NCBI GenBank assembly: GCA_038087875.1
Contig: CM075992.1
Span: 9,054,001 to 9,118,000 of the forward strand
Direction: 5' to 3'
DNA length: 64,000 nucleotides
Source of the DNA: Malacoraja senta
Taxonomy: Eukaryota
The notes under the pieces were generated by a model. That model was not told where the DNA came from, did no database searches, and saw only the letters and a list, made by a program, of their open reading frames with translations. This document shows, in pieces, positions 25,690 to 37,772 of this stretch (positions within the stretch are counted from its first letter, which is position 1; every line of letters starts with the position of its first letter). The position numbers and the translations under genes were made by a program.

Positions 25690-25833
25690 CGGCCAGAGTG
25701 CAGTTTGACTGGCGAGACGCCCTGAACCTGGAGAGCCAGCTGACGGAGGAGGAGATCCTGATCAGAGATACCTTCCATGCCTACTGCCAAGCCAAGCTGA
25801 TGCCCAGGATACTCATGGCAAACCGCAACGAAG
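25690..25833 (+). CDS. GCDH: GCDH coding exon 3
   Basis: [48 protein letters not shown]; 144 nt with AG/GT boundaries. Confidence 0.95.
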
Positions 25834-31699: not shown

Positions 31700-32808
31700 A
31701 CGTGTCAGGTCAGGATCGAGGTTGGTGTCTGTAGTGTCCTGACCTAAAACCTACTCCTTTTTGTCTGGAGATGCAGCCTGACCTGCTGAGTTACTCCAGC
31801 GCTTTGTGTCTCTCTTTGGTATAAACCAGTATCTGCAGGTCTTTGTTTCCACAGTAAGAATATTACATAGACATAGAAAATAGGTGCAGGAGTGGGCCAT
31901 TTGGCCCTTTGAGCCAGCACCGCCATTCATTATGACCATGGCCGATCATCCTAAATCAATACCCTGTTCCTGCTTTCACCCCATATCCCTTGATTCCATT
32001 GGCCTTAAGAGCTATATCTGAACTTTCTCTTGAAAACATCCAGTGAATTGGCCTCCACTGCCTTCTGTGGTAGAGAATTCCACAGATTCACAATTCTCTG
32101 GGTGAAATTTTTTTTCTCCTCATCTCAGTCCTAAATGGCCTACCCCTTATTCTTAAACTGTGACCCCTGGTTCTGGACTCTCCCAACATGGGAATGTTTA
32201 TCCTGCATCTAGCCTGTCCAATCCCTTAAGAATTCTCTGTTTCTATAAGATATCCTCTCATCCTTCTAAATTCCAGTGAATACAAGCCCAGTCGACCCAT
32301 TCTTTCATCATATGTCAGTCCCGCCATCCCGGGAATTAACCTGGCGAACCTACGCTGCACTCCCTCAATATTGAAGTCTAGGTGTAACTTGTCACGGGAA
32401 CTGGTCAGTCAGTGAGCGCAGGGATCATCATTCAACTGGAGGTATATATTTGCTTAAATGTCTTGCTGCCCAGAGCTTTGGAGGGAGTAATTGTGACCCT
32501 GTTCCTCAGTTCAGCTGGGGATGGGGGGGGGGGGGGGGGGGGAGCTAGTTCACCATCACTTACTCAGGTGACCTGCCATCACTCTTTACTCCCTGTATAT
32601 AGCAGACAGTAATGTGTAAACTGCCTGTTGATGTAACATTCTGCATAATTACATTCAGTGGCGCAGCGGTAGAGTTGCTGCCTCACAGCGCCAGAGACCC
32701 AGGTTTGATCCTGACCATGGGTGCTGTCCGTACGGATCTGATATACACATATATAAATGTGTACAATTTTGAAAAATTAAGATAAAGTACTGGGAACCGT
32801 CAAGCAGA

Positions 32809-33010
32809 CACACTTTCTGCCTCCTCCTCCAACCTCATCTACTGTATCCGCTGTTCCAGGTGTCAACTTCTCTACATCGGCGAGACCAAGCGCAGGCTCG
32901 GCGATCGTTTCGGCTGAACACCTCCGCTCAGTCCGTCTTAACCTACCTGATCACCCGGTTGCTCAGCACTTCAACTCCCCTCCCATTCCCAATCTGACCT
33001 TTCTGTCCTG
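32809..33010 (+). mobile_element. Penelope-like element GIY-YIG endonuclease fragment
   Basis: [29 protein letters not shown](A)EHLRSV is the PLE GIY-YIG motif. Confidence 0.8.
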
Positions 33011-33130
33011 GTAGTCTCCAGGTTCTCCGATTTCTTCCCACATTCCAAAGACACACAGGTTTGTAGGTTAATTATCTTGGTATAATAGTAAATTGTCCCT
33101 AGTGTGTGTAGAATAGTGTTAGCGTGCTGG

Positions 33131-33279
33131 TGAGGGGGGGGGGGAGAATGCAACTTCACGTGGTCCGCCCTGTTTCGACGAATGCAATCAACCTGGTGTG
33201 CACAATCAAATAAGGTCAAATAGAACAAGTTGCCTTCAACTTTAGGCTGTGCACGCCATACGCAAGAAGAAGAAGAAGA
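33131..33279 (+). mobile_element. Short SINE-like element with HDV-like ribozyme head, copy 1
   Basis: 10-bp TSD agcgtgctgg (33121-33130, 33280-33289); (GAA)n tail; 5' part homologous to the ribozyme at 37409-37462; inserted in a V-SINE. Confidence 0.8.
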
Positions 33280-33433
33280 AGCGTGCTGGGATCACTGGTC
33301 GGTGCGGACACATTGGGCCGAAGGGTCAGTTTCCGCGCTGTATCTCTAAACTAAACTAACCATTCAGTCCATATTCAAACATGCTCCTTGTTGGATGACT
33401 ATATGTAATAATTGACTCTTTTTCTCTCCTCAG

Positions 33434-33497
33434 TGTTTCACCGTGACATTTCTACAGGAGATGGGAGAGTTGGGAGTACTGGGATCCACAATTAAAG
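33434..33497 (+). CDS. GCDH: GCDH coding exon 4 (apparent +1 T at 33449-33451)
   Basis: VFHRDI[+T]LQEMGELGVLGSTIK; 64 nt where the frame requires 63. Confidence 0.9.
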
Positions 33498-36789: not shown

Positions 36790-36961
36790 GTTATGGATGT
36801 GCGGGGACCTCGTACGTGTCCTACGGCCTGATTGCCCCGCGAGGTGGAGCGTGTGGACAGCAGCTACCGATCCGTCATGAGCGTCCAGTCCTCCCTCGTC
36901 ATGCACCCGATCTCCGCCTACGGCACCGAAGCGCAGAAGCAGCGGTTCCTTCCAAAGCTAG
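36790..36961 (+). CDS. GCDH: GCDH coding exon 5 (apparent +1 C at 36835-36838)
   Basis: [16 protein letters not shown][+C][41 protein letters not shown]; 172 nt where the frame requires 171. Confidence 0.9.
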
Positions 36962-37407
36962 GTGGGTCACTCTCCCAGCCGTGCTCCACCCACCAGCTCC
37001 CGTTTACTTATACATCGGCGAGACCAAACGTAGACTGGCCGATCGTTTCGCTCAACACCTTCGCTCAGTCCGCCTGCACCTACCTGATCTCCCGGGTCAG
37101 TTGCCACACACTGTAATTCTCCTTCCCATTCCCACACTGACCTTTCTGTCCTAGGCCTCCTCCATTGTCAGAGTGAGACTAAACGCATCTGGAGGAACAG
37201 CATCTCATATTTCGCTTGGGCAGCTTCCAGCCCAGTGGTATGAATATTGATTTCTCTCACTTCAAGTAACCCCTGCATTCCCTCTCTCTCCATCCCTCCC
37301 CCACCCAAGTCACACCAGCTTCTCGTTCTCACCTAGCACACAGCTAACAATGGCCTGTGTCCTTTATTGTTACTTTTTCGCATATCTTTCATTTGTTCTA
37401 TATCTCT

Positions 37408-37539
37408 TGGGGTGGGAGATTGCAACCTTCACGTGGTCCGCCCTGTTTCAACGAATGCAATCAACCCGGCGTGCACAATCAAATAATATCAAATAGAACA
37501 AGTTGTCCTACACTTTAGGCTGTGCACGCATACGAAGAA
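37408..37539 (+). mobile_element. Short SINE-like element with HDV-like ribozyme head, copy 2
   Basis: 13-bp TSD gttctatatctct (37395-37407, 37540-37552); ends GCATACGAAGAA; no Pol III A/B boxes seen. Confidence 0.85.
37409..37462 (+). ncRNA. Minimal HDV-like self-cleaving ribozyme (predicted)
   Basis: P1 GGGGTGG/CCGCCCT (G1-U wobble), J1/2 GA, P2 GATTGCA/TGCAATC, P3 ACC/GGT, L3 TTCACGT, vestigial P4, J4/2 CGAA with candidate catalytic C at 37452. Confidence 0.8.
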
Positions 37540-37772
37540 GTTCTATATCTCTCTACATCACCATCTATATCTCTCGTTTCCCTTTCCCCCAGTCTAAAGA
37601 AGGGTCTCGACCCGAAACGTCACCCATTTCCTTCTCTCCAGGGATGCTGCCTGTCCTAAATGTTGAGTTATTCCAGCATTTAGTGTCTATCTTTGTTATA
37701 AACCAGCATCTGCAGTTGTTTCCTACACAACCTAACCAGGCGTTGTGTCTTTCTGCTCTTGTCCCCTTGTAG

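Follow-up and report, generated by a model that had tools for sequence, protein, structure and literature searches.

A damaged copy of an abundant LINE-derived element in the GCDH gene of Malacoraja senta and its predicted P4-less HDV/CPEB3-type ribozyme head

The closest described systems are the NARTc/L1Tc and RIME/ingi pairs of trypanosomes, whose clade is the sister of Vingi. In these pairs, a short non-autonomous element has the first 77 nt of its LINE, an HDV-like ribozyme that is cut at +1, joined to a short 3' end and flanked by TSDs of about 11 to 12 bp (PMC3383444 and PMC4035085). The element described below has the same build, but it occurs in a vertebrate, measures 135 bp rather than 263 bp, and has an AAG tail and a 54-nt predicted fold without P4. 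The R2 SIDEs of Drosophila likewise combine a 5' ribozyme with the 3' end of the parent LINE and are mobilized in trans. However, R2 is site specific in rDNA and SIDEs are rare, whereas the present family is dispersed in thousands of copies and has an APE-type parent (PMC3414825). Bipartite non-autonomous Vingi elements are also already known, as internal-deletion derivatives of Vingi-1_EE and as Vingi-containing SINEs (PMC5786205).

Two groups of ribozymes are relevant to the head of the element. The CPEB3 ribozyme (RF00622) resembles it in helix lengths up to position 38, in L3, in the GU joint, in CGAA, in the core numbering (U20, U21, C22, G25, G37, and U38) and in its sense location within an intron. 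The element differs in the sequences of P1, P2, and P3, lacks P4, does not match the model, and heads a multicopy transposon rather than occupying a conserved single locus. The minimal HDV-like ribozymes (drz-Mtgn and theta) also lack P4 and are of about the same size, but nearly 99% of them are confined to tailed phages, often next to tRNAs, whereas the heads described here belong to a vertebrate retrotransposon (PMC10879173).

We analyzed a 64,000-nt stretch of Malacoraja senta DNA (assembly GCA_038087875.1, contig CM075992.1, positions 9,054,001 to 9,118,000), hereafter the window, which contains an element copy at 33131-33279 that we refer to as the focal copy. We consider it probable that this copy is a damaged member of an abundant 135-bp non-autonomous retrotransposon. 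In the element, 77 bases from the start and 41 from the end of a LINE, likely of the Vingi clade, would be joined, and its head, a predicted P4-less HDV/CPEB3-type ribozyme, would likely free the element RNA from host transcripts. New findings are that an element of a vertebrate has a predicted head lacking P4, and that sister heads connect Vingi with CPEB3.

The insertion in GCDH and its family

The focal copy is bounded by exact 10-bp direct repeats, read from the sequence at 33121-33130 and 33280-33289 (all window features are on the plus strand). A 10-mer repeated across a 135-nt gap was found by chance at 8 of 2,000 random window positions. The first two bases of the right TSD carry on the AAG register of the tail (33264-33279), and many TSDs in the family open in the same register. 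Six extra bases (33131-33136) separate the left TSD from P1, reflecting either untemplated addition or a homopolymer over-call; similar G-run heads are present in two other loci, L009 and L073.

The surrounding gene is glutaryl-CoA dehydrogenase (GCDH), and the host intron lies between exons at 25690-25833 and 33434-33497, the latter containing one extra nucleotide, at 33449, that stems from the assembly. Within the intron, the focal copy interrupts an older tRNA-type SINE of about 300 bp, whose three parts (head, middle, and tail) follow the order of full-length copies in the window, at 74 to 85% identity. The central part (33015-33130, 75 to 83%) precedes the insertion, and the 3' part with its CTAAA tail (33280-33359) follows it. 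A probable tRNA-like head of the same SINE lies at 32658-32736, separated from the central part by about 280 bp. This interrupting segment (32741-33014) gives a weak GIY-YIG match (PF01541, E = 0.005, under the cut-off), and we take it to be Penelope-like. The host itself is presumably a V-SINE of the HE1 type. HE1 is listed in a table as a V-SINE of sharks and rays (PMC3747384).

The only close relative of the focal copy in the window is a second copy at 37406-37541, which is 89.6% identical (matched stretch 37409-37540), has a shorter tail and an intact fold, and is also sense to GCDH. It has its own 13-bp TSD, and the two copies differ in host repeat as well as in TSD. The insertion is real and independent rather than a local duplication. 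The earlier note had claimed as much from the separate TSDs and had also pointed out the longer tail, and its placement of the copy in GCDH, nested in an older repeat, also holds.

Our genome search with the element returned 1,509 candidates, and 39 of the 40 that were scored were non-self matches at 95 to 96%. A 29-mer spanning the element-specific junction occurs 2,844 times as an exact match in the genome and never in the reversed control, bearing out the proposal of an abundant family. The copy number is estimated at roughly 7,000 (a rough 7,300 from the 29-mer count and divergence). We sampled the first 30 junction matches by position, of which 24 have TSDs of 7 to 17 bp and 27 begin at base 1 or 2 of P1. 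With the anchor left out, these 30 copies diverge from the sample majority at 86 of 2,683 non-CpG sites (3.2%, subfamily variants included) and at 44 of 414 CpG sites.

The family had been called relatively young, and this is true in part. The low non-CpG divergence and the complete identity over 135 nt of 5 of the 29 best matches make it far younger than the host SINE, which is about 80% identical to its paralogues, but the family is also found in contigs or reads from the sequencing runs of six organisms. In RNA run X23, family reads lie on both strands, with about 240 first mates on the plus strand versus 155, opposite to the host SINE, in a library of unverified strandedness; no pile-up of read starts was seen in this run. 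A search of the viral collection gave no matches.

A bipartite derivative of a Vingi-like LINE

Nucleotides 1 to 77 of the element (33137-33212 in the focal copy) match the 5' ends of a LINE, which we call V4, with 89 to 91% identity (e.g., L226:1667-1742, L248, and L255). The last 41 bases are the ORF end, stop, and tail of V4. In the focal copy, this part (33234-33279) consists of the last three codons, the stop at 33243-33245, a short 3' UTR, and the AAG tail, and 29 of 30 V4 3' loci pass straight from coding sequence into these three codons, the stop, and the element tail. The two ends are united in L226, a TSD-bounded V4 copy of about 2.8 kb with element nucleotides 2 to 77 at its start, APE, RT, and the tail. 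The linker between the two parts (nucleotides 78 to 99; 33213-33233) is absent from V4 copies bar one antisense match; our search for its source found only this 16- to 20-nt match, in one rearranged V4 copy and unique in the genome. The element carries no ORF.

On its sequence, the element is thus a bipartite internal-deletion derivative of a Vingi-like LINE. The label "SINE" that it had been given does not apply in the strict sense, since bases 1 to 77 match a LINE 5' end from the first base and leave no room for a tRNA, 5S, or 7SL head. Kojima classes elements of this bipartite type as non-autonomous LINEs. We assign the element to the bipartite non-autonomous LINEs and, within them, probably to Vingi; it is a member neither of the strict SINEs nor of RF00622.

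V4 is a compact single-ORF LINE of about 3 kb, collinear over residues 12 to 1002 with a 1,002-aa APE-RT protein; Pfam searches on four V4 pieces found APE and RT, with RNase H absent. Its 5' region has 29 candidates in the genome, and every V4 copy examined is broken. The route to V4 was a negated-pattern search that uncovered an element copy interrupted by a 302-bp Vingi-like fragment, which has a Cys/His motif and an AAG tail at its end. This fragment led to several single-ORF APE-RT families of about 3 kb that lack RNase H and have homologues of about 1,000 aa. Fourteen negated-pattern matches were considered as the parental 5' end and rejected as rearranged element copies, not a LINE, and the families V1, V2, and V3 were rejected as parents because their heads and tails differ. 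A genome search with the PF14529 endonuclease found the element head on none of the 30 loci fetched.

The anatomy of V4 fits that of Vingi as defined in PMC13708176. In an RT tree of 29 rows of unnamed Vingi-like RTs and two outgroups, V4 forms its own branch, apart from the outgroups (94/94). V4 likely belongs to the Vingi clade, an assignment made from its anatomy and from the head in common with the gharial element Vingi-2_Gav.

Several further observations concern these elements. Folding predicts a 10-bp stem between the 5'-derived (33195-33204) and 3'-derived (33248-33257) halves of the focal copy, with a z-score for the whole element that is not significant. The same palindromic hexamer is present in both LINE-derived halves at these positions and marks the breakpoint in the shorter deletion copies L062, L067, and L072. 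End-to-end pairing of the halves may have caused the founding deletion. Inverted 5' segments are common in Vingi-like copies (L135, L139, L214, L204, L230, and L229) and resemble the twin-priming products of L1. In one V4 copy (L235:1430-1600), no stop interrupts the reading frame across the predicted ribozyme, and the J4/2-P2 boundary holds an ATG in that frame; the ribozyme head and the ORF start of V4 may overlap. Fragments of V2 and V3 are near-identical on many small contigs (L186-L192; C51, C385, C5476, and others), apparently amplified within a larger repeat unit.

The predicted P4-less ribozyme head

The earlier note had proposed aligning both copies to a genome-wide consensus and took a consensus that does not fold as a refutation; all pairs of the fold are present in the family majority. 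The majority head consists of P1 (1-7/30-36, with a G1-U wobble), a 2-nt joint, P2 (10-16/48-54), P3 (17-19/27-29), L3 (20-26), GU (37-38), five bases, and CGAA (44-47). It is thereby predicted to form a complete nested double pseudoknot with a 7-bp P1 (G1-Y), P2, a 3-bp P3, and a 7-nt L3. Every pair and core base is retained in 10 of the 30 position-ordered copies and in the second window copy. In the focal copy, the predicted 54-nt family fold corresponds to 33137-33189, with the predicted cut directly 5' of 33137. P1 occupies 33137-33143/33165-33171, P2 33146-33152/33183-33189, and P3 33153-33154/33162-33164. L3 lies at 33155-33161, GU at 33172-33173, a 5-nt loop at 33174-33178, and J4/2 at 33179-33182, with C33179 as the predicted catalytic base.

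The GU-UUCG-AC mini-P4 assigned earlier to the focal copy is unlikely. It would use both the C of CGAA and the G needed for P1.1, has a pair probability of 0.05, and costs 1.7 kcal/mol. Only 5 nt separate U38 from the catalytic C, and the mini-P4 would pair G37 with C44 and trap the latter; the modeled fold therefore likely lacks P4. Ribozyme designers add a base against mispairing of the G37-C44 type.

Support for a ribozyme-type head comes from the family majority and from sister LINEs. Of 21 V4 loci, some of them duplicates, 17 replace the U-G pair of P1 by U-A and 16 read CUAA where the element has CGAA, yet the C is present in all 21. Rfam models of the HDV type also recognize sister heads. 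A strict HDV descriptor was passed by 9 of 58 loci, belonging to the three families V1, V2, and V3, but by none of the 58 reverse strands and none of 1,160 shuffles; the V4 loci in the set of 58 all failed it. The passing heads differ in the sequences of P1, P2, and P3. In 12 heads picked by hand for their fit, 97.5% of the 120 cells of P1 and P3 (P2 uncounted) are paired, and 6 of the 10 pairs show changes on both sides, compared with 0 of 500 shuffles and 47 to 59% in slid controls. The ribozyme-type reading of the head is thus upheld, with cleavage as a prediction. Together with the 27 of 30 copies that start at base 1 or 2, the covariation of P1 and P3 across sister heads makes it likely that the 5' end of the element is determined by the ribozyme. 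A precise 5' end could also be obtained from an internal promoter alone, which counts against this reading. The catalytic C is part of a CpG, and 3 of 30 copies have another base there, which is what one would expect if no selection acts on copies once inserted.

Other searches were negative or mixed. Rfam gave no match at gathering level on the window and none for the element, L005, L268, or the V4 head L255 at E values up to 5 to 10; the window, L005, L268, and L255 also fall below the RF00622 gathering threshold (35 bits). Pseudoknot-free folding stability shows no excess over shuffles (z = 0.92). Among 20 Vingi-like loci from metagenomes, one passes a relaxed descriptor and none the strict one; two metagenome loci match Rfam HDV-type models below threshold, and several more resemble decayed versions by eye. 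By eye, HDV-type heads are seen in metagenome Vingi-like loci L300, L307, L309, L319, L323, L338, and L361, several with the CPEB3 L3 loop, and L300 apparently has an enlarged L3. V1, V2, and V3 (L153, L177, L192, and relatives) each have their own HDV-type head with a long P4.

The focal copy itself lacks the complete HDV-type fold. Compared with L005, an intact copy, it differs over 135 nt by four substitutions and by two deletions of 1 nt each. P1 keeps 6 of 7 pairs (G for T at 33141), P2 keeps 6 of 7 (A at 33148 in place of the T of other copies), and P3 keeps 2 of 3 (one C missing after 33154); two further substitutions and the second deletion lie outside the fold. The P2 mismatch and the missing C had both been reported from first reading, as had the retention of UUCACGU (L3), CCGCCCU (33165-33171), CGAA, and UGCAAUC (33183-33189). 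The G-run, in contrast, does not replace the P1 5' strand as had been claimed: it is that strand (33137-33143) with one T-to-G change, preceded by the six extra bases. The core bases are intact, namely, U20 and G25 in L3, C22-G37 (P1.1), and the catalytic C followed by N-R-A in J4/2. Fold prediction for this copy gives a shifted alternative. Given one mismatch each in P1 and P2 and a P3 of 2 bp, we predict little or no cleavage by this copy and, if the assembly is right, consider useful activity unlikely.

Sequencing error had been suggested as one source of these defects, given other 1-nt indels in the region, and such indels are indeed present in two GCDH exons. The extra T at 33449 is missing from contigs of runs X1 and X2, identifying it as an assembly error, and the second exon is shifted by one base near 36835. 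Both are 1-nt insertions in short homopolymers, and errors of this kind could explain the long G-run of the focal copy, whose 5' junction is crossed by none of the public contigs. At two errors in exons that presumably total roughly 1.2 kb, two deletions within 135 nt would be a rare outcome, and decay therefore likely accounts for some of the damage.

Some of these results would also fit a second reading, in which the bipartite Vingi-like derivative is the same but its P4-less head is a catalytically dead remnant retained as an internal promoter or protein-binding signal, and the 5' end is a transcription start. The 77-nt head of L1Tc doubles as an internal promoter (PMC3383444, PMC4035085), the element head has neither an Rfam match nor a folding excess, and its P1.1 would have a single C-G pair with no supporting P4. 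Nevertheless, this P4-less head is shared by the autonomous V4, whose catalytic C is kept in all 21 loci read, P4-less HDV-like ribozymes are active (PMC10879173), CPEB3 works with one G-C and a U-U in P1.1, and the covariation of helices across families suits an RNA structure, not a DNA promoter. We judge this second reading unlikely. A true SINE, with a Pol III-transcribed, small-RNA-derived head and a borrowed LINE tail, would account for a short, non-coding, abundant element with a LINE-like tail, but it is very unlikely and largely refuted by a head that is LINE-derived from base 1 and matches nothing in Rfam. Local duplication or an assembly artefact, which the nearby 1-nt errors and the uncovered 5' junction might suggest, has next to no probability given the different TSDs and hosts of the two window copies and the family's presence in runs of six organisms, and it is refuted at the family level by the 2,844 dispersed junction 29-mers.

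Under the preferred reading of a ribozyme-headed derivative, host Pol II read-through, here of the GCDH pre-mRNA on the sense strand, would be followed by self-cleavage 5' of G1. V4 protein would bind the element 3' end in trans and nick DNA, and reverse transcription would be primed on the AAG tail, often with 1 to 3 bases of microhomology. The new copy would again have both head and tail.

Sister heads, CPEB3, and significance

The 5' end of the gharial Vingi-2_Gav is given in the supplement of PMC5786205; compared by eye with the CPEB3 consensus of Rfam, it agrees at 46 of the 48 positions that lie outside P4. The middle of the alligator SINE2-1_AMi, aligned there to Vingi-2_Gav, is by eye a near copy of the same consensus with the same 7-bp P4 stem. 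The main text does not mention CPEB3, and Vingi is not among the ribozyme-bearing clades it names (PMC5786205).

A 19-nt CPEB3 core pattern with at most 1 mismatch has 462 matches in the genome and none in the control. Of 30 loci fetched, 13 were scanned with RF00622, and all 13 match at E < 0.05, 8 of them above the gathering score. The best (59.7 bits) begins at the first base of V5, a little-diverged, full-length Vingi-like LINE of 3.1 kb with an 11-bp TSD and an AAG tail (L405:203-3310, on genome contig C1 from 86602702). A second V5 copy (L406) has an unbroken 946-codon APE-RT segment, and the first part of its head is tandemly repeated. By eye, the V5 head resembles the 5' end of Vingi-2_Gav. 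Besides V5, most pattern matches belong to a second non-coding family of about 200 bp, with a CPEB3-like head, an AAG tail, and several hundred pattern matches (L374, L376, L378-L398, and L400-L403).

The CPEB3 ribozyme has been reported as not found outside mammals. Because V5 starts with a near-copy of it, the mammalian ribozyme likely began as the front end of such an element, and the wider spread of the transposon form leads us to infer the direction from transposon to mammalian intron. We consider it likely that the Vingi clade carries CPEB3-type 5' ribozymes, that the element family shrank one of them to a 54-nt P4-less form now present in thousands of copies, some sense in introns, and that the CPEB3 ribozyme of mammals arose by domestication of a Vingi 5' end, a history that would give it the missing non-mammalian outgroups. 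Our literature search, mainly of non-subscription papers, found none linking Vingi with a ribozyme, CPEB3 with Vingi, the CPEB3 ribozyme with a transposon origin, or an HDV-like ribozyme with a SINE of sharks; subscription work, Repbase, and patents may mention Vingi ribozymes.

Taken alone, the focal copy is a decayed insertion of little weight. If the head is active, the family would be a naturally occurring case, in a retrotransposon of a vertebrate, of the P4-less HDV-type ribozyme, which has been described almost exclusively from phages. Its natural variants, of which about one in three is structurally intact, number in the thousands and could be assayed. Vingi elements serve as gene-writing tools with their native UTRs (PMC13708176), and it would be useful for gene writing if the 5' UTR is a ribozyme and a 135-nt cis-unit suffices. 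Within host genes, sense intronic copies could compete with splicing, as has been proposed for CPEB3.
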